This document shows, piece after piece, positions 3,048 through 24,374 of a stretch of DNA of 32,000 nt. Origin of the DNA: Cylindrospermopsis raciborskii Cr2010 (GTDB lineage: Bacteria; Cyanobacteriota; Cyanobacteriia; Cyanobacteriales; Nostocaceae); assembly GCF_003367075.2 (NCBI RefSeq), contig NZ_CP065936.1, positions 3,000,001-3,032,000 on the forward strand, read 5' to 3'. How positions within the stretch are numbered: position 1 is the first letter of the stretch; each line of letters begins with the position of its first letter. Position numbers and translations under genes: made by a program. Under the pieces are notes generated by a model. That model was given only the letters and a program-made list of their open reading frames with translations, was not told the origin of the DNA and did no database searches.

Positions 3048-4211
3048 TTACAGACCATGAGTTTCTCCTAGAACAACCTCCCGCTGTGCTCCTGTAGCAA
3101 CCGGCAAATTTCCAGGAATCCCTAAATGTTTCCAGTAAGCTAACACAGCAAAGGCGATCGCCTCCTTAAAAGCTGAGCTTAATCCCATGACATCTGTGGT
3201 GGTAACTGGTATTGAATCCAGCAATACCTCCAATCGTTTTTTCAGATAGAGATTGCGACCTCCGCCACCACACAATAGGACTTGTTGTGGCATTTGCGGT
3301 AAAAACTCACGGTAACTTTGAACAATAGAAGCTGCTGTTAGTTCAGTAACTGTTGCTAACACGTCTGGAATAGATAAATCATAGTGATTACAATCTCGCA
3401 AACACTGATAAAAGTAGTCAACACCGAACAGCTCTCTACCAGTGGACTTAGGAGGGCGTAAATAGAAATAGTCTTGACTCAACCACTGTTTAACCAATGG
3501 ATAACAAGGAGAACCACTAGCTGCCCAGGCCCCATTTTGATCATAAGTTTTTTGACCATTAGTAAAATGAGACACAGCTAAATCTAACAAACTATTTCCT
3601 GGACCTGTATCCCAACCCATGATTTTGTCTAGCCAACCATCAGAGCGTGGAGGTAGATAAGTAACATTACCAATACCACCAATATTTTGAATACAGCGAA
3701 CCTCCTGAAGATGACTCAAGAGAAAAGCATCAACCCTAGGGACTAAGGGTGCTCCATGACCACCGACTGCAATATCAGCCACACGAAAATTACTAACAGT
3801 AGTAATACCAGTGAGGCGAGCAATAACAGCACCCCGACCTAGCTGTAAACTATAACCTAGGGGGACGTGATTTTCCTCTCCTGTGGGTCTGTGGTAAACC
3901 GTCTGACCATGAGAACCAATGAGAGTAGCGGGGGGGTAACCAACCTGAATATGTTGGGCCGCCTGGGCAAAAACCGTGGCTATTTGATCATCAATAGTAG
4001 CCAGCTCCAGCATGGAAATTTGTTCTCCCCCACAGATGGAGAGGATTTTAGTCCGTAGTTGGGGTGGATAGGGGTAAGTTTCCCCCGCCAACAATTCCAC
4101 CTTCAGGTCTAAGTCTCCACCAGATATTTCCACTAAAGCGGTGTCTATACCATCTACAGAAGTACCACTCATTAAACCAATCACACGAGTTGGGGGGATT
4201 ATTTCCTTCAT
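3048..4211 (-). CDS. anmK: Anhydro-N-acetylmuramic acid kinase
   Basis: N-terminal [29 protein letters not shown], and length ~387 aa are typical of AnmK. The start ATG overlaps the kdpC stop (ATGA). Confidence 0.85.
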
Positions 4212-14757: not shown

Positions 14758-15576
14758 CTATAAACCGGATATATATGGATAGTTAGTGATGAATAATTCC
14801 TTGCCCTTGTCTGCTTTATTCTGTTTGTAGTTATTCATTCCGTATTGCAACTCCCACTCATAAATATGAGCAAAAGAAAAATTGTGTCGCACCTGTTCGC
14901 AATTATCGTAGGTAATTAACCATTTATGTGGGCATTCTTTCATCAGGTTAGCAAAGCGAGAATGGTCAAAACACGTATGCAAATCCCCTTTTTTACCATA
15001 AAGCCTAGATTTAGTATTGGTGAAATAAGGTGGATCTAGAAATATAAATACATCGTCTCCTGGTTCAGTCAGTAGGATACTGTAGTCATAATTGGTCACG
15101 TGGGTATTAGTAAAACAACTATCCAGTGCTGCTAACCGCTCAATAGAAGAGTCTGTAAAGCGACTGTTGAAAGAAGCATTGCTATAACCTCCGCTTTCAA
15201 TTGTCCCCGAAAAGGTAATTCGGTTAAGAACGAAAAATCGGACAGCTCGCTCCAGTGGACTCATTTTACTTGTAGGAGCTAGGGAGAGAGATTTAAACAG
15301 GGCATGTCCATCTGTTGTCTGTTTTTTTACTTTCCACACGGACTCGACTAACTGTGGTAGATTAGTTTTGACCATGGCCCAGAAGTAATATAGTTCGGGG
15401 TTGAGGTCATTGATCCAACAGGGTATATGACGGTGATTTTGCAAGACATAAAAGAATATGGAACCTCCCCCAACAAAGGGTTCGCGGAACTCTTTAAATT
15501 TAGGAGGTAGGTAGTGAGCAATTTGAGAAATTGCCTTTTGTTTACCACCAGGATAACGTAATGGGCTCTTAAGCAT
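14758..15576 (-). CDS. Dam-type (alpha-class, D12) N6-adenine DNA methyltransferase; orphan, with no adjacent endonuclease ORF
   Basis: N-terminal LRYPGGK, AdoMet motif EPFVGGGS, catalytic DPPY (FLDPPYF). No ORF of 60 aa or more on either flank that could be a cognate restriction enzyme. Confidence 0.9.
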   Translation of the reverse strand: MLKSPLRYPGGKQKAISQIAHYLPPKFKEFREPFVGGGSIFFYVLQNHRHIPCWINDLNPELYYFWAMVKTNLPQLVESVWKVKKQTTDGHALFKSLSLAPTSKMSPLERAVRFFVLNRITFSGTIESGGYSNASFNSRFTDSSIERLAALDSCFTNTHVTNYDYSILLTEPGDDVFIFLDPPYFTNTKSRLYGKKGDLHTCFDHSRFANLMKECPHKWLITYDNCEQVRHNFSFAHIYEWELQYGMNNYKQNKADKGKELFITNYPYISGL

Positions 15577-16009: not shown

Positions 16010-16723
16010 TTAGCGTCTTGACAACAAATAAAGACTTATACCAAGTCCAAGTATATTAGGCGAGAAGATGGCAAATACTGGGACATACCTTTGAATAATT
16101 AAAGCGTTAATTATAGCTTCAAAGACCTTTATTGCTCCAATAATTAGCAACGTAAGGCTAAAGCTACTATATTTGATTTTCGGTCGCATATTGATTCCTA
16201 TTGACGACCCAAGTAGGGTGAAAATGACGCAAGATATAGGTAAGTTGAAACGATTAAATAAGGTAATTTTTAGGTTTATTATTTTGTTCATGTCTCCTAG
16301 TTTATTGGAAACTATCAATCTCTGGTAGATCTGGAGAATATTCATTTCTTTATCATCCAATTTTTCTCTATCTAGTTGAAACTGCTGACATATATTAGGC
16401 GAATCAACCACAATTTGTTCAAAAACTTGTTCCTTACCAAAAGATCCATCTTGGTTGATTGTATTTTTAACTCCATTATAAAAATGAAGACATTTACTTT
16501 CTCCATAAATTAGGGCAATTTGAGAGTTTATTATTACTTTTAATCCTTGAGAGTCTGAAATCAGTAAAGTAGGGTTAATCATCTTGTGATCGATCAGTTT
16601 TTCAGCGTAAAACAAGTATTTAATAAACTTATATTTGTTTGATAGATCACCCTTACTTGTTTGTGCCAACTCTTTATATATAATGTCATTATTATCCAAT
16701 CTCTCTCGATTTATATTCATCAC
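16010..16723 (-). pseudogene. LptF/LptG (YjgP/YjgQ) family permease, N-terminally truncated fragment
   Basis: Periplasmic-domain-like middle plus the C-terminal TM block (NLKITLFNRFNLPISCVIFTLLGSSIG...FSPNILGLGISLYLLSRR) aligns with the C-terminal ~2/3 of cyanobacterial LptF/G. The first ~130 aa (3 TM helices) are absent and no upstream ORF supplies them. Visibly more AT-rich than its neighbours. Confidence 0.55.
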
Positions 16724-17016: not shown

Positions 17017-18246
17017 ATGTTGAGTTCAATAAGTACCTTAGATATGATGAATCAAAATAAAACTCCTCCTCGGATCCAATACCTTAAAATCGAAAACTTT
17101 CGGGCATTACGGAAAGTCGAGCTCAAAAACCTTACGCCCCTCACAGTCCTCCTAGGTCCCAATGGTAGCGGTAAATCTACCCTCTTTGATGTCTTTGCTT
17201 TCCTCTCTGAGTGCTTTGAACTAGGACTGCGTCGCGCCTGGGATAAACGTGGTAGAGCTAAAGAACTCAAAACTAGGGGCAGTGATGAGGCGATCGTCAT
17301 TGAGATTCAATATAAAGAACCCGACTATCCCACCATTACCTACCACCTAGCAGTGGACGAACGCAATGGCGCACCCTTTGTCAAGGAAGAATGGCTGAAA
17401 TGGCGACGAGGCAAACATGGTCAACCGTTTAATTTCCTAGACTACAAGGAGGGAAATGGAAAAGCAATCAGTGGTGAGCTACCCGATGAAAAAGACAAAC
17501 GCATTGAAATTCCTCTCAAATCCCCTGACCTGCTAGCTGTTAACGCCCTGGGTCAATTTGCTGAACATCCCCGCGTCGCCGCCCTACGAGACTTCATCAC
17601 CGGTTGGCACGTCTCCTATCTCTCCGCCGACAGTATCCGCACTCAACCTGAAGCAGGCCCCCAAGAACATCTAAACCGCAGCGGAGATAACCTTGCCAAC
17701 GTGATCCAATACTTAAATGAACAACATCGCGATCGCCTAGAAGCAATCTTTACAACTTTGCGGCGGCGAATCCCCCGCATTGAAAGGGTTTTGACTGAGT
17801 CTATGCCCGATGGTCGCCTACTCCTACAAATCAAAGATACTCCTTTTACCCACCCTATAATAGCACGCTTTGCTTCCGATGGCAGCTTAAAAATGCTGGC
17901 CTATTTGGTGCTGCTGCAAGATCCCGCTCCCCCTTCCTTTATTGGCATTGAAGAACCTGAAAACTATCTCCACCCCAGATTGCTCCCCGAACTCGCTGAG
18001 GAGTGCCAGCAGGCAACTGCTAGAACTCAAATGCTTGTCACCACCCACTCTCCCTTCTTCATCAATCAGCTTAAGCCTAAGCAAGTGCGAATTATCTATA
18101 GAGGAACTGATGGCTATACTCGAACACAACTTATTGAGGATATTCCAGGGATCAAGGAATTTATCCAACATGGAGCAAACTTAGGAGATTTGTGGATGGA
18201 GGGACATTTTGAAGTTGGCGATCCTTTAAATCAGGAGGGTATTTAA
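17017..18246 (+). CDS. ABC-type (AAA_21/AAA_15, OLD/SMC-like) ATPase
   Basis: [12 protein letters not shown] followed by Walker [10 protein letters not shown]; Walker B-like [14 protein letters not shown]; H-loop LVTTHSPFF. The true start is more likely the ATG at 17044 or 17047 (MMNQNK...). Confidence 0.85.
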
Positions 18247-18878
18247 TGCCCAAAACAAATAGTTTTTGCATCGAGGTTTTAGTAGAAGAACCTTCTGCTG
18301 AAGAAGCCCTCAAAACCCTTTTGCCAAAATTACTCAAGGGGCGATCTCGCCATAAAATCATTAATTTTGGGAGTAAATCAAAACTACTTAAGTTACTGAG
18401 CCAACGTTTATCTGCCTATGGCGATCGCATCAGCAAAGGAGAAAACGTACGGATTATTGTATTAGTGGATCAAGACAATGATGATTGTAAGAAATTAAAA
18501 AATCAATTAGAGGGAATTGCTCAACAAACAGGATTATCCACCAAATCTAAACCAGATTCTGAAGGAAGATTTGTAGTTCTCAATCGGATTGTGATCAAAG
18601 AACTAGAATCTTGGTTTATTGGAGATACAGAGGCTTTGCGTAAAGCTTTCTCCAGCTTGCCGAGTATATCACCTAAATCAGGAATCTTTCGCAGTCCCGA
18701 TAATGGGGGTAGTTGGGAGGCTCTACATCGGTTCTTAAAAAAACATGGCATTTATAAAAACGGCTACCCCAAAATAGAAGCGGCCCGCCGCATTTCTCTC
18801 CATATGAACCCAGATCAAAATTACTCTCCAAGTTTTAACTGCTTTAAAGCTGGAATAGAAGCCTTCCTATCTCAATAA
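18246..18878 (+). CDS. DUF4276-like small protein with a Toprim-like catalytic residue pattern
   Basis: Start ATG overlaps the ATPase stop (TAATG). First strand IEVLVEEPSAEE (conserved Glu), VLVDQDNDD (DxD), KELESWF. 210 aa. The family assignment is from memory of the DUF4276 pattern and was not searched. Confidence 0.65.
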   Translation: MPKTNSFCIEVLVEEPSAEEALKTLLPKLLKGRSRHKIINFGSKSKLLKLLSQRLSAYGDRISKGENVRIIVLVDQDNDDCKKLKNQLEGIAQQTGLSTKSKPDSEGRFVVLNRIVIKELESWFIGDTEALRKAFSSLPSISPKSGIFRSPDNGGSWEALHRFLKKHGIYKNGYPKIEAARRISLHMNPDQNYSPSFNCFKAGIEAFLSQ

Positions 18879-20339: not shown

Positions 20340-20459
20340 TTACAATGAAGAACCAAGTCCGGCGTAGGCTCCGTAAAAGAAAATACCTACAACAGTAATT
20401 ACACCTAAACCCGCGATTGTGGCAACAACCCACAGGGGAATTCTCCCGCCTCCAGACAT
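20340..20459 (-). CDS. psbJ: Photosystem II protein PsbJ
   Basis: Manual translation: [39 protein letters not shown] (39 aa); below the ORF-track cutoff. Confidence 0.9.
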
Positions 20460-20522
20460 GGTTTTCTCCTCCCTTAACAAATCAACAAAAAATTAGCAGT
20501 CATCTTTCCAGCTCGTTAACAG

Positions 20523-20642
20523 TTAGTTAAAGAAGTAACTGGAAAATAGAATCCCTAGAACGAAAATTAATAACAGTCCTAGGTATAAAGAAGTACGGTT
20601 TAGTTCAACAGGTTGTTGATTAGGATTAGGCGTTCTTTCCAT
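20523..20642 (-). CDS. psbL: Photosystem II protein PsbL
   Basis: Manual translation: [39 protein letters not shown] (39 aa). Confidence 0.9.
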
Positions 20643-20651
20643 GATTTACTC

Positions 20652-20789
20652 CTAGCGTTGAATAAACTGCATTGCTGCGATCGCACCCAAGAAGAAGACA
20701 GTTGGCACACCGAGGGTGTGAACTGCTAGCCATCTCACCGTAAAAATTGGATAAGTAACAGGTTGATTGACGTTATTGCTGGTAGCCAT
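20652..20789 (-). CDS. psbF: Cytochrome b559 beta subunit
   Basis: Manual translation: [45 protein letters not shown] (45 aa). Confidence 0.95.
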
Positions 20790-20798
20790 GTTCTTAAA

Positions 20799-21047
20799 TT
20801 ACTTTGCGATAAATGTTTCTACTTGTTTCTTAGCTTCATAACGGTTGCTAACAATTGGTACTTCTTGACGCAGTTGAGTAAAATACTCATTAGGACGAGG
20901 CGTACCAAATATATCATAAGCTAGACCTGTGCTGACAAACAACCACCCAGCGACAAATAAAGCGGGTATGGTGATGCTATGAATTACCCAGTAACGAATA
21001 CTGGTTACAATGTCCGAAAATGGACGTTCTCCAGTGGTACCTGACAT
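20799..21047 (-). CDS. psbE: Cytochrome b559 alpha subunit
   Basis: [31 protein letters not shown]...; canonical PsbE and first gene of psbEFLJ. Confidence 0.95.
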
Positions 21048-21123: not shown

Positions 21124-21142
21124 AGGTGCTATAAAAGCACCT
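21124..21142 (-). terminator. Possible terminator after cpcS exon 2
   Basis: Minus strand AGGTGCT TTTAT AGCACCT followed by CCCTTTT. A perfect TATAAT (21113-21108, minus) follows and could be the psbE -10 box. Confidence 0.35.
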
Positions 21143-21200: not shown

Positions 21201-21537
21201 TTACTTAGCTTTACTAGCTTGCTCCATAGCTGCTTGAGATGCAGCAGTGCTACCCATACGAATTTCGGAAGTAAAGGAAGCCATACTAAAACCCCCAAAA
21301 CGTTTAAGTACTCCCACACGCATCCGTAAATTAGGACTAGCAAACCATAGTCGTTCTTCTGAGGACATGGTTTCATACTCTGTGATCAGAGTTAATGCAC
21401 CATCGTTACCCATCTTATAGGTTCCAGCTACTGGCATTTTTTCTGCATAACCCATTTCCCTCAATAGTTTACCTTCACCTGGTTTAAGTAAGTCGGGTAC
21501 AGTGACTAAAACTGTAGAACCTTCATGTTTTGGTTGA
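21201..21537 (-). CDS. cpcS: CpcS/CpeS-type phycobiliprotein (phycocyanobilin) lyase, exon 2
   Basis: The frame is open upstream of the tracked ORF back to the intron. ...[95 protein letters not shown] matches the C-terminal two-thirds of CpcS. The exact 3' splice site is uncertain by multiples of 3 nt (21537 preferred, 21540 possible). Confidence 0.8.
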
Positions 21538-21574
21538 GTCGATGGAGGGTATTATCCTTCGCACCTCTCGTTTA

Positions 21575-21608
21575 AATCTGGGCGTGCGATTTTCACCGCA
21601 CCCAGCTT
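21575..21608 (-). ncRNA. Group II intron domain V
   Basis: AAGCUGGGUGCGGUGAAAAUCGCACGCCCAGAUU aligns position-for-position with the consensus GAGCCGUAUGCGAUGAAAGUCGCACGUACGGUUC: AGC triad, GAAA loop, AC bulge, 34 nt. Confidence 0.85.
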
Positions 21609-21617
21609 CCGATGTTC

Positions 21618-22718
21618 TTAGCTATAGCTTTTGCCTGGAGTGTTAGAAAGGGTAGAGTTTTGACCAGAGTTCACTCGTGGAAACGCCTTATTTATCAGTT
21701 GCTGAATGATTTGTCGGTTTTGTTTTGTTTCCCGATTAAACACCTTGAAAGCTCTGTATTTTATATGGTAGAGGGAAAATCTCGCCCCATCCATGTTGCA
21801 ATGGCGATGGTAATTTCTCCACTCCCCTACGATCAAGCTCAATTTCTGTGCCTTGATAGTAGCTCCATAATTCGAGTTGTTGACTATGTGTTTCACTTTC
21901 TGGCGAAAAGCTTGGAAGTCTTTTAGTCCGGGGACACATCTTAACTTTCCGTTTTTTTGCACTTGAAAATGCCAAGTGAGAAAATCAAACCCATCTGTCG
22001 CTGCAATTAGTTCAGTTTCTTCCGTAGCTAGTTCTATTCCATCTTTTGCCAGGGAGTGACGAATAGTGTCAAGTATTGTTTCTGGGTGATCCTGAGGTTG
22101 GAGGATAATCACTATTTCCCTCCCATACCAAACTAGTTTTCCTATATTTTCTATTTCCTTGAGGAAAATATTAGCCAGTAAGGAGGTTATCAGTTCCGAT
22201 TTCTCCACAGAAAGACATTGTGACCTAATCCCCCGTTTGATTTCTACAGGAGCTATTAGTCTTTTACAAATCGCTCTTGGGTTGATTTTTTCTAGAGATT
22301 TCCCCAAATCAATTTTGATTACTCTTGTTTGATGACCAGGAATTTCCGATAAATATACTTGTAACATTCTTTGTGCATCCTGGGGGGAAAATCCCCGTTT
22401 CCATCCATAACCGTGGAGGTGGAAATTACCTTCATGGGCTGGATCTAAGGTGTATTTAATTACCCACTGCCATACCCGCTGTCTAGTGGTGGAAGATAAA
22501 ACCTCTGTAAGAGAATTTGCTTGTAATACTTGACGAATAGCCAGTAATTGTGCTGACGTAGATTTTAAGATTAGCTTTTGAAGAGACTTAGCCTTGCGCA
22601 GGTCTCCAACTCGAACGGCTTTGTACACTCGTTTTTGCAAGCGGAAGAGATTGCGGCGAAATTGTCGCCAGGGTAACCTCTGCCAAGATTCACTAACATT
22701 TCTGTTGTGTCTAATCAT
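21618..22718 (-). CDS. Group II intron-encoded protein with a degenerate RT domain (maturase-only type)
   Basis: RT-0 block WQRLPWRQFRRNLFRLQKRVYKA...SLQKLILKS...AIRQV; SYGFRPGRS-like HGYGWKRGFS; ISPLLANI-like ITSLLANIFL; YADD position reads VWYGREIVII; GFDFLTWHF; domain X (WRNYHRHCN...). Only 366 aa, with no D/En domain. GGAG ~10 nt before the ATG. Confidence 0.85.
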   Translation of the reverse strand: MIRHNRNVSESWQRLPWRQFRRNLFRLQKRVYKAVRVGDLRKAKSLQKLILKSTSAQLLAIRQVLQANSLTEVLSSTTRQRVWQWVIKYTLDPAHEGNFHLHGYGWKRGFSPQDAQRMLQVYLSEIPGHQTRVIKIDLGKSLEKINPRAICKRLIAPVEIKRGIRSQCLSVEKSELITSLLANIFLKEIENIGKLVWYGREIVIILQPQDHPETILDTIRHSLAKDGIELATEETELIAATDGFDFLTWHFQVQKNGKLRCVPGLKDFQAFRQKVKHIVNNSNYGATIKAQKLSLIVGEWRNYHRHCNMDGARFSLYHIKYRAFKVFNRETKQNRQIIQQLINKAFPRVNSGQNSTLSNTPGKSYS

Positions 22719-23275
22719 ACTTTAACTCCAACTTGTGTATTCTGAACACCTCCGACCAATTACGGTCAGTCCTACCCGAAGTGAGGGAATTTTGCTTCTC
22801 GTCAAGCCTACTTGGGTTTTGACCTTCCCTAGACCCTCAATTCGTTTTTATTCGTTCCCCCGGTTAGATTGTTAGTTTCCTTAGGTGTAGTCAATTCAAC
22901 TACTGGTTTCCCAAGACTCTTACCGCTAATCCAAGAAAATGCGGCGGGAAATATATCCAGTCCAGTCGGGTTTTAATGTTGTGTCCCGCTTATGGGTAAG
23001 TTGCTTTTTTAGACTCTATTTCACCGTAGAAACACCCCATTAGCACCAGTGTCATCCCACAACGGATGTCTGATTGCACCCTGTTCCCAGCTTCACCCTC
23101 CAGTTACCGAGTCTGGTCAGTGTGGGCAGATCGGGAGTCACACCTGAGTCTGGCGGATGGGACTTTCACCCATATCCAACTGAGAGTTCAACCTTCATCT
23201 ACTTGTTTATTACTAGTTGAGGTTGGTGAGGTTATTACGGATTAGTTACCGATGTTGACCCACAACGAATCGCAC

Positions 23276-23511
23276 TCTTGGTCCCATTCCATGGTTCCTT
23301 TCCAGGTGACTCTTGCTCCACAGGAAGCTGCATCGGGAAGAATGGAATACTGTTCACACAGTTTAATTACTTCTGGATGGTCTACTGTGAGCATGTCAAT
23401 TACGATGTCTGATTTACCATCTTCTGACTGTTTAAAGGCTAAATGGTGGCTAGTACGGTGGGAAAACCACTTTCCAGCACTTAATTCGAAAAACTCTTCC
23501 ACATTCATCAA
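23276..23511 (-). CDS. cpcS: CpcS/CpeS-type phycobiliprotein lyase, exon 1
   Basis: [78 protein letters not shown] is the conserved CpcS N-terminus. The tracked ORF reads on into the intron (from the GAG codon completed by the first G of GTGCG) and stops 11 codons after that split codon. Confidence 0.85.
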
Positions 23512-23699
23512 TCTAATTGTCCTAAAGGAAAATAGCTACTAAAGAAAATATACTCAAAAATACGGTTGCTTGACTGGATTTATCTCAAAATGAAATATGT
23601 CACCATGAGTTGGCCCAAATTTCAAACTCCACTTCACAAACAAAGGAAGGATAGCAGTGGTCAGCACAAATCAACTTGATCCATTTTTCCACAAGTCCC

Positions 23700-24374
23700 T
23701 TAGACCTCGGTCTGGACTTTCTTCAGAGATATGGTCGCAGCTTGAGAAACATGGGGATGACTATCCTTTTCCAAGTATTTTAGAGCTGAAATACTTTTGT
23801 CCGTGGGTAGGTTGCCTAGGGCTTCTGCTAGTCGCTGTCTGACTAACCAATCTTCTGACTGTACAAATCGCAAAATATGATCTACTGACTCAATTGATTT
23901 AATTTCTCCTAAAGCTGAAATCGCTGCTTGCTGAATTACTATCTCCTCACTATCCAAAGCTTGAATTAAAATATTATATGCACGCTTATCTTTGATATTA
24001 CCTAAGGCTACTGCTGCACTAAACCTAACTAACCATTCTGTATCTTCGTAGAAAGCTCTTGATAAAGGTTCTACTGCTCTATTATCTCCTAAATATCCTA
24101 GAGCCCCAGCTGCATCCGCACGAATCCCATAGTCGGGATCAGCTTCTAGAATTCTCACTAGAATAGAATAACATTCTGAAGTTGATTTAATTCCCAATGC
24201 AAACACTGCCATAGAGCGTAGCTGTATGGATTCGTCATTAAGAACTTTTTTGATTAGGGGAACTGCATCCTCCGCAGGAACATTCCGTAATTGTGTTAGA
24301 GCTATCATGCGATCGCGCAAGTTCGGACTTGCTAACTGGGTGGAGATTTCCTCTAAGCTGGGAATATTCATCAT
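23700..24374 (-). CDS. HEAT-repeat protein of the PBS-lyase (CpcE/NblB-like) family
   Basis: Repeated ...VR..AA.ALG... HEAT units (IRADAAGALGYLGD, VRFSAAVALGNIKD, QQAAISALGEIK, VRQRLAEALGNL). Length (~224 aa) and layout are like NblB. Lies directly upstream of, and co-directional with, cpcS. Confidence 0.65.
   Translation of the reverse strand: MMNIPSLEEISTQLASPNLRDRMIALTQLRNVPAEDAVPLIKKVLNDESIQLRSMAVFALGIKSTSECYSILVRILEADPDYGIRADAAGALGYLGDNRAVEPLSRAFYEDTEWLVRFSAAVALGNIKDKRAYNILIQALDSEEIVIQQAAISALGEIKSIESVDHILRFVQSEDWLVRQRLAEALGNLPTDKSISALKYLEKDSHPHVSQAATISLKKVQTEV

Follow-up and report, generated by a model that had tools for sequence, protein, structure and literature searches.

How does a cyanobacterium obtain a working bilin lyase from a gene whose two parts lie 1.74 kb apart, and what has become of the element that separates them? 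The question is raised by cpcS of Cylindrospermopsis raciborskii Cr2010, which lies in a stretch of 32,000 nucleotides (nt) analyzed here (contig NZ_CP065936.1, positions 3,000,001 to 3,032,000; referred to below as the window, with coordinates counted from its first base). This cpcS, which is of the CpcS-III type, is split by a 1,744-nt group II intron carrying a maturase-like intron-encoded protein (IEP) that appears dead as a reverse transcriptase (RT) and lacks the endonuclease, and we consider it likely that the intron is immobile, fixed, and vertically inherited. The interruption of cpcS is already known, the kind of system is known, and the general picture is unchanged. CyanoLyase (Nucleic Acids Res 2012, PMC3531064) records, for C. 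raciborskii CS-505 and Raphidiopsis brookii D9, a CpcS-III gene with a bacterial group II intron; the author of the original prediction for this locus, made from the sequence alone, knew of no described cpcS intron. The CyanoLyase curation is a single sentence stating that the intron was removed and the open reading frames (ORFs) fused; it neither places the boundaries nor treats the structure of the intron or the protein that it encodes. In the literature searched, no other paper links Cylindrospermopsis or Raphidiopsis to group II introns, and a decayed IEP of the cpcS intron is undescribed.

Reading along the minus strand, the exon 1 frame passes through ...GTMEWDQ into GTGCGA at 23275 and reaches a stop 11 codons on, and the resulting 88-amino-acid (aa) unspliced ORF is identical to EFA69745.1 and to other C. 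raciborskii entries, including one from strain S07. The same strand encodes the rest of the lyase 1.74 kb further on, up to 21201, and annotation pipelines render the gene as two fragments of 88 aa and 84–87 aa. The boundaries are given by an uninterrupted counterpart, a 1,257-bp Joint Genome Institute (JGI) contig (Ga0451500_02554, sample 3300042579; here L016), which encodes P0245, the sole full-length 187-aa protein in the cluster of exon 1 ORFs. Bases 1–247 of L016 align with window positions 23522–23276 and bases 248–1257 with 21531–20522, and the flanks leave the boundaries unambiguous. Because L016 joins 23276 to 21531, the intron is 23275–21532, and the interruption falls after the second base of codon 78. 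Exon ligation joins GA to A (Glu), and the product, ...MEWDQ-E-KHEGS..., has 187 aa and is 97% identical to P0245. The junction of the ligated RNA predicted by this gene model is ...GGGACCAAGA joined to AAAACATGAAGG..., likewise written ...ATGGAATGGGACCAAGA joined to AAAACATGAAGGTTC....

The original prediction was correct in the extent of exon 1 (to 23276, followed by GTGCG and the stop, with ATG at 23508 and its TTG at 23511 in frame), in the location of the rest of the gene, and in the 5' splice site between 23276 and 23275, which L016 confirms. It was wrong by 6 nt in starting exon 2 at 21537, since L016 sets the 3' splice site between 21532 and 21531. Its join of GA to T is actually GA to A, the 'QP' that it read into the protein being intron bases that add two extra residues relative to the orthologues, and the AC that it took for the intron terminus is CC, the 3' end reading ...CGACUCAACC. 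Exon 2 starts at 21537 and at 21540, the other site it had considered, are in frame and were rejected on the evidence of L016, of covariation in domain VI, and of the two-residue insertion relative to orthologues. A junction placed where the Rfam alignment stops, 21533, is out of frame, the true end being one base further. The comparison with intron-less cpcS orthologues that it had suggested shows zero gaps for the corrected product, which is 88% identical to one such orthologue.

The joined exons match the Pfam family CpeS (PF09367) over profile positions 1–170 of 170 with an E value of 8.6e-72, a search that was run on the 189-aa product of the GA-to-T join with exon 2 from 21537. The cpcS orthologues begin MNIEEFF, and one intron-less orthologue is annotated 'homodimeric phycobilin lyase, CpcS-III family'. 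The Nostoc CpcS-III enzyme is established as a near-universal lyase for Cys-84. In a scan limited to the window, its ORFs of at least 110 aa include no second CpeS-family gene. From what is established for the Nostoc enzyme, Cys-84 chromophorylation of phycocyanin and allophycocyanin would depend on this single split gene.

The nature of L016 bears on whether splicing has been seen or only predicted, and its features fit a spliced RNA from an intron-bearing strain. In its two segments it is identical to an intron-bearing contig (L001) at 247/247 and 1006/1010 positions (99.7%; 4 of 1,257 bases differ), whereas intron-bearing lineages diverge from one another by 2–5%. It starts 14 nt before the ATG and 7 nt downstream of a weak TTGAGT-17-TATTTT, which was read by eye and lies under the threshold of a consensus promoter scanner. 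If L016 were instead a genomic intron-less cpcS allele, whether through precise loss or as an ancestral empty site, it would lend no support to splicing, and both its shortness and the labeling of its source merely as JGI leave room for this. We nevertheless regard a genomic origin as unlikely in view of its near identity to L001 and of its starting point, to which may be added that no intron-less allele occurs among the sequenced Cylindrospermopsis and Raphidiopsis strains in the exon 1 ORF cluster and that the ligated junction had 0 matches in the scanned JGI metagenome collection. The boundaries stay identical whether L016 is RNA or DNA. In the same collection, the exon 1–intron junction was found in one C. 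raciborskii-like contig (L017) and in one chance match unrelated to cpcS (L018, 961–982, a 1.3-kb contig encoding a proline-rich, eukaryote-like protein, ...MEWDKECDVG...). Of four spliced proteins considered for the window strain, none has an exact match in the protein collection.

The central claim of the original prediction, that a conserved cpcS is split by a bona fide group II intron and that the lyase needs splicing, is upheld by domains V and VI, by covarying domains I–III, by pairing between exon-binding and intron-binding sites (EBS and IBS), by selection on the exons, and by the ligated sequence. Domains V and VI are matched by Rfam model RF00029 at 21610–21533, where 48.5 bits exceed the gathering threshold of 40; this is the only Rfam match in the window, and domain V is as canonical as had been proposed. 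The 5' GUGCG (23275–23271) fits the GUGYG consensus and is common to all relatives. A consensus fold of domains I–III, computed with RNAalifold on the 5' 560 nt of nine sequences (including seven related introns of 75–79% identity and that of D9), comprises 147 pairs, 47 of them with compensatory changes, and ten sequences give 26 pairs for domains V and VI, with 14 compensatory, domain V having 13 pairs and 8 compensatory.

The exon-binding sites show that the intron recognizes the exon in which it sits. EBS1 and EBS2 of the window intron pair with exon 1 at 11/11 positions; across the window and its relatives the mean is 10.5/11 for the cognate exon versus 7.5/11, with a maximum of 9, for non-cognate exons, and the EBS columns of the relatives match each relative's own, differing 5' exon. 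A first candidate for EBS2, GUCCCAU near 23165, is a 7-nt complement of the exon and was rejected as it sits in a conserved covarying hairpin (alignment columns 106–122). No EBS3 column was found by covariation with the first base of exon 2, and G22772 is compatible with a gamma-gamma' contact to the last intron base, for which the covariation is weak and unspecific, 4 of 625 columns fitting equally. EBS1 occupies the terminal loop of the Id arm and EBS2 one of its internal loops, a placement that may suggest a IIB or chloroplast-like (CL) class. Among the window, L001, and two further intron-bearing loci (L002 and L003, the latter from D9), the ribozyme domains are more conserved than the flanking cpcS exons: domains I–III are 98–99% identical, and over domains V and VI identity is complete (100%) for L001 and L003, with 2 mismatches (97.7%) for L002. 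By these comparisons the ribozyme looks intact and tailored to the cpcS site.

The bulged A in domain VI, for which the original prediction gave no coordinate, does exist: A21539 is invariant in ten sequences and lies 7 nt before the 3' splice site. What does not stand is the fold that goes with the ...CGAC end assumed at the time, the only one that could be built for it, in which A21543 is bulged. In the consensus fold of the family that base has a partner, forming U-A in 9 sequences and G-C in 1. The basal helix of domain VI has the consensus (U/A/C)GAG/CUC(A/U), with U-A to A-U covariation. In related full-length introns at unrelated sites, 10 of 11 3' ends read CGACUC(A/U)AC followed by C, and one (L006) has U in that place, the sequences diverging thereafter. 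Because ten of the eleven likewise end in CC, this end looks like a trait of the lineage and not a defect of the cpcS copy. Among the relatives, a Nostoc punctiforme NIES-2108 contig (L007) has copies of domains V and VI at 215–292, 2340–2417, and 2640–2717, of which two are identical and 300 nt apart, and these could be 3' ends of tandem or nested introns. A Microcoleus sp. POL10_C6 contig (L005, 1–2134; high coverage, cov 192 in its name) consists of exactly one intron, from GTGCG to ...CAACC, and is probably a collapsed multi-copy element, and in L012 a partial 5' segment is duplicated just upstream of a full copy (3115–3455 and 3522–4198).

Table 1. Coordinates of the cpcS exons, the intron and its parts, and the adjoining psb genes in the window
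Feature	Position	Strand	Details
cpcS exon 1	23276..23508	-	ATG 23508; codons 1–77 and bases 1–2 (GA) of codon 78; in-frame TTG 23511
IBS2 (AUGGG)	23283..23287	-	Exon positions -12 to -8; 5/5 pairs with EBS2
IBS1 (CCAAGA)	23276..23281	-	Last six bases of exon 1; 6/6 pairs with EBS1
Group II intron	21532..23275	-	1,744 nt; 5' GUGCG ... CUCAACC 3'; boundaries from L016
Domain I (approximate)	22850..23270	-	Closing stem 23270-23264 / 22856-22850
EBS2 (CCCAU)	22992..22996	-	Internal loop of the Id arm
EBS1 (UCUUGG)	22931..22936	-	Terminal loop of the Id arm
Domain II (assignment approximate)	22777..22844	-	Covarying helix, alignment columns 492-561
J2/3 and short domain III hairpin	22752..22776	-	J2/3 22776-22770 (candidate gamma G22772); hairpin 22769-22752; consensus fold, domain III assignment approximate
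IEP ORF in domain IV	21618..22718	-	366 aa; GGAG 9 nt upstream of ATG
Domain V	21574..21609	-	AGC triad 21607-21605; GAAA loop; two-base AC bulge
Domain VI	21535..21570	-	Bulged branch-point A 21539
cpcS exon 2	21201..21531	-	Begins with A, base 3 of codon 78, followed by KHEGSTV...; stop TAA 21203-21201
psbE, psbF, psbL, psbJ	20340..21047	-	Directly 3' of cpcS

The ORF that had been predicted in domain IV is present, and the most unusual feature of the locus, which the original prediction missed, is that this ORF is RT-dead and endonuclease-less. Its close homologues form only three clusters (99, 87, and 86% identity), all in the cpcS context, and the window IEP is one residue off a C. raciborskii protein (P0254). 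Beyond these are hundreds of ~503-aa cyanobacterial RT/maturases at about 50% (45–53%) identity, which are full-length RT-X-HNH elements at many different sites. The intron thus groups with cyanobacterial elements that, apart from the cpcS copies, are complete retroelements in which the RT, X, and HNH endonuclease domains are all present. Aligned with the ~503-aa relatives, the IEP keeps RT0, has about 43 aa deleted in RT1–RT2, has no PQGG motif, has its RT6 lysine replaced, and in place of YADD has YGRE in the window strain and YERE in another. RT7 and the thumb/X region are well conserved, with residues 250–340 aligning with the relatives and with the thumb of 6ME0_C up to 381, and the C-terminus is without about 100 aa of the relatives, including the C..C....HH..H motifs of the HNH endonuclease. 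Against Pfam and NCBIfam profiles the IEP scores 63 bits for RVT_N, 13 for RVT_1 versus a cut-off of 29.6, and 86 for TIGR04416 versus 300, and its AlphaFold2 model (pLDDT 74) matches group II RT/maturase structures with a TM of about 0.6. We infer that the IEP would be unable to reverse-transcribe or to cut DNA.

These losses are common to all cpcS-intron lineages and therefore predate their divergence. Among the window, L001, L002, and L003 the ORF indels (6, 24, and 27 nt) are all in frame. L002 keeps eight residues (GILRCVKT) that match the full-length relatives and are lost from the other three by a 24-nt deletion, and a 27-nt deletion that removes nine residues near the C-terminus is found in the window lineage only (deletion sites in the window, 22233 and 21654, minus strand). 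As judged from these alignments, the RT remnant is eroding stepwise with the frame unbroken. The former YADD is polymorphic within C. raciborskii as YGRE versus YERE, and other residues of the RT remnant vary too, for instance GYGWKRG versus GYGGKRG (P0001, P0256, P0259, and P0265), which fits an absence of constraint on catalysis.

The frame itself is open in 26/26 distinct sequences of the IEP's 90%-identity protein cluster. In pairwise comparisons by the Nei-Gojobori method, the ratio of nonsynonymous to synonymous substitution rates (dN/dS) is 0.25–0.30 for the IEP overall, 0.08–0.19 for the cpcS exons, and 0.11–0.28 for psbE. Within the IEP it is 0.30–0.37 for the RT remnant and 0.15–0.29 for thumb/X, and in the 66 codons of RT0 dN is 0, with 0 non-synonymous versus 3–4 synonymous changes. 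Identity is 93–94% in the ORF versus 98–100% in the ribozyme parts. Synonymous divergence is much alike in the IEP (dS about 0.15) and in exon 2 (0.16–0.20), as would be expected if the intron and its host gene descended together. Within its own 90%-identity cluster the truncated exon 1 ORF is found in many C. raciborskii strains, in R. brookii D9 (EFA74340.1), and in C. curvispora GIHE-G1. Among GTDB species representatives a close copy of the IEP occurs in R. brookii D9 only, with 89% protein identity and at the same position. Other Nostocales among the returns of the CpcS search (Sphaerospermopsis, Anabaena, Okeanomitos, Anabaenopsis, and Chrysosporum) have an uninterrupted cpcS. This distribution fits entry of the intron into cpcS in the ancestor of Cylindrospermopsis and Raphidiopsis.

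Based on these data, we put forward a mechanism for expression of the split gene. The intron would be transcribed inside cpcS, probably together with psbEFLJ, and EBS1 and EBS2 would bind the final 12 nt of exon 1. Attack on the 5' splice site would come from the 2'-OH of A21539, the bulged base of domain VI. Ligation of GA to A would then give a 187-aa CpcS colinear with its intron-less orthologues. Having lost the RT and endonuclease functions, and hence mobility, the intron would persist since cpcS needs its removal, and the IEP would most likely survive only as the cis maturase of its own intron. The scheme predicts that splicing takes place in vivo through a lariat, that it depends on the IEP, that the intron is immobile, and that the split copy is essential. 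That the split cpcS is functional is argued by the exon dN/dS values, the conserved ribozyme, the full EBS/IBS pairing, and the ligated cpcS sequence. The loss of RT1–2, PQGG, YADD, and D/HNH, taken with the retention of RT0 and thumb/X and with purifying selection, therefore points to an immobile, maturase-only intron, and splicing of its own intron is the most likely role of the IEP. With somewhat less confidence, we favor the view that the IEP is a bacterial analogue of MatK, in which retromobility has been given up, inheritance is vertical across the Cylindrospermopsis and Raphidiopsis clade within a photosynthesis gene that may well be essential, and selection keeps a private splicing factor.

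The alternative that must be weighed most carefully for the IEP is that the intron splices alone or by means of a trans-acting host factor or maturase, so that the 366-aa ORF is a slowly decaying relic unneeded for splicing. Trichodesmium is known to have ORF-less introns that rely on maturases encoded in trans (PMC4649490), and in the cpcS intron the RT remnant evolves fastest, segments are still being lost by the 24-nt and 27-nt deletions, and the former YADD varies between strains. A neutral 1.1-kb ORF at a dS of about 0.15 should, however, show stops or frameshifts in some lineages, whereas this one has stayed open in all the lineages and strains examined, has suffered only in-frame indels, and shows dN/dS well under 1, with no amino acid change at all in RT0 and the low values of thumb/X. 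We therefore think it rather improbable that the ORF is a relic.

Several points nevertheless weigh against our proposal of a spliced cpcS intron served by a selected maturase. The pairwise dN/dS comparisons share branches and so are non-independent, indicating constraint without being a formal test, a ratio of 0.3 denotes constraint without saying which function is constrained, and overlapping RNA structure (DIVa) could explain part of the conservation of RT0. The GIIM (domain X) profile of Pfam scores 20.6 bits, just below its cut-off of 23. For the RNA, the covariance-model check suggested in the original prediction succeeded with RF00029 for domains V and VI and failed for the rest, there being no match to the Rfam D1–D4 class models even at E values up to 1. 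Two features could lower the splicing efficiency of the cpcS intron: its 3' terminus is CC in place of the AY found as a rule, and the base of domain VI (21570/21535) is a C-A mismatch in all four cpcS-intron lineages, where relatives have U-A or A-U. Finally, L016 is perhaps an intron-less genomic allele instead of mRNA.

Two further explanations fare far worse. An ordinary, active mobile group II retroelement recently inserted into cpcS is very improbable: its relatives at 45–53% IEP identity are indeed full-length elements at many sites, but the cpcS IEP is without RT motifs 1–2, PQGG, YADD, and the D/En region, the same decay is seen in all lineages, the insertion occupies one site only across a genus, and the intron ORF has a dS similar to that of the host exons. 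Hardly any weight can be given to a dead cpcS pseudogene disrupted by an intron remnant, as the two annotated fragments might suggest, given exon dN/dS of about 0.1 on both exons, a ribozyme core 98–100% conserved, perfect EBS/IBS pairing, and the existence of a ligated full-length cpcS sequence.

The surroundings of cpcS are ordinary chromosomal genes (kdpABC, priA, sigma factors, and psbEFLJ), not mobile DNA. Because the ligated-cpcS contig L016 continues through psbE, psbF, and psbL, it suggests a cpcS-psbEFLJ co-transcript, in which case unspliced intron RNA would precede the cytochrome b559 genes. A promoter-like TTTATA-16-TATAAT lies between cpcS and psbE at 21135–21108, and a gene for a HEAT-repeat, PBS-lyase-like protein is directly upstream of cpcS (23700–24374, minus strand). 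Elsewhere in the window, an LptF/LptG-like ORF (16010–16723, minus strand) matches only profile positions 134–353 of 353 and seems N-terminally truncated. It is adjoined by an AAA_21 ATPase and DUF4276 gene pair (17017–18878, plus strand) and by a gene for a D12-class adenine methyltransferase (14758–15576, minus strand), and together these may form a small inserted defense-type island.

What the locus offers is first an exact gene model for cpcS, joining 23276 to 21531 to encode 187 aa, which is useful against the two-fragment annotation carried across Cylindrospermopsis and Raphidiopsis genomes. Its main value is an RT-dead, endonuclease-less IEP under purifying selection, for which a 2015 review gives one bacterial precedent. 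If the analogy with MatK is true, this would be the second documented bacterial IEP that is degenerate but maintained, after O.i.I2, and a free-living, culturable model of the transition from retroelement to splicing-only intron that is otherwise organellar. If the maturase role is true, this bloom-forming cyanobacterium would provide a tractable system for the passage, made earlier by the introns of organelles, from a selfish retroelement to an intron that is fixed and dependent on its host, and it would become testable whether splicing is a control point for phycobilisome assembly.

The closest known systems are the cpcS introns of CS-505 and D9, which share the gene, the genus, and the interruption. 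The exon 1 ORF of the window is that of CS-505, and the strain is a different one, since several residues distinguish its IEP from EFA69746.1. In D9 the locus (L003) is collinear with the window and the intron about 94% identical. Group II introns in cyanobacterial protein-coding and housekeeping genes are a recognized phenomenon (PMC4424553; PMC4649490). Those of Trichodesmium erythraeum likewise interrupt conserved cyanobacterial genes and splice in vivo, and many of their IEPs are truncated or missing (PMC4649490), but they occupy other host genes in another genome, many are ORF-less and multi-copy, and the likeness drawn here is at the family level. Among solved structures the best match to the IEP is the T.el4h RT of Thermosynechococcus (PDB 6ME0), with an E value of 4.8e-17 by sequence and of 3e-10 by Foldseek (TM 0.61). 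That protein, which its depositors call a retroelement, has 562 aa, an intact YADD (RYADDFVV), and a long C-terminal region, whereas the cpcS IEP is without equivalents of its residues 78–120, of YADD, and of everything past about residue 405 (the D/En region).

In two other systems an IEP has decayed and yet been kept. Zimmerly and Semper (2015; PMC4424553) describe degeneration of bacterial IEPs as rare and give O.i.I2, in radC of Oceanobacillus iheyensis, as the sole known example. It too is a bacterial intron in a cellular gene with an IEP that has lost YADD and other RT motifs while its frame remains open, suggesting a maturase-only role. O.i.I2 is, however, of the ML (mitochondrial-like; IIA) class and from a Firmicute, whereas the cpcS intron is of a cyanobacterial lineage with IIB-like features and is fixed across a genus, and purifying selection on it was measurable. 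In chloroplasts, MatK of the trnK intron, like the cpcS IEP, has lost the N-terminal RT motifs and YADD and has no En domain but keeps domain X (PMC4424553), and the cpcS intron may be likened to the trnK intron in being immobile and vertically inherited in an essential gene (PMC4424553). The differences are that MatK is an organellar protein of a IIA intron and acts in trans on several introns, whereas the cpcS IEP retains RT0 and shows no sign of other client introns.

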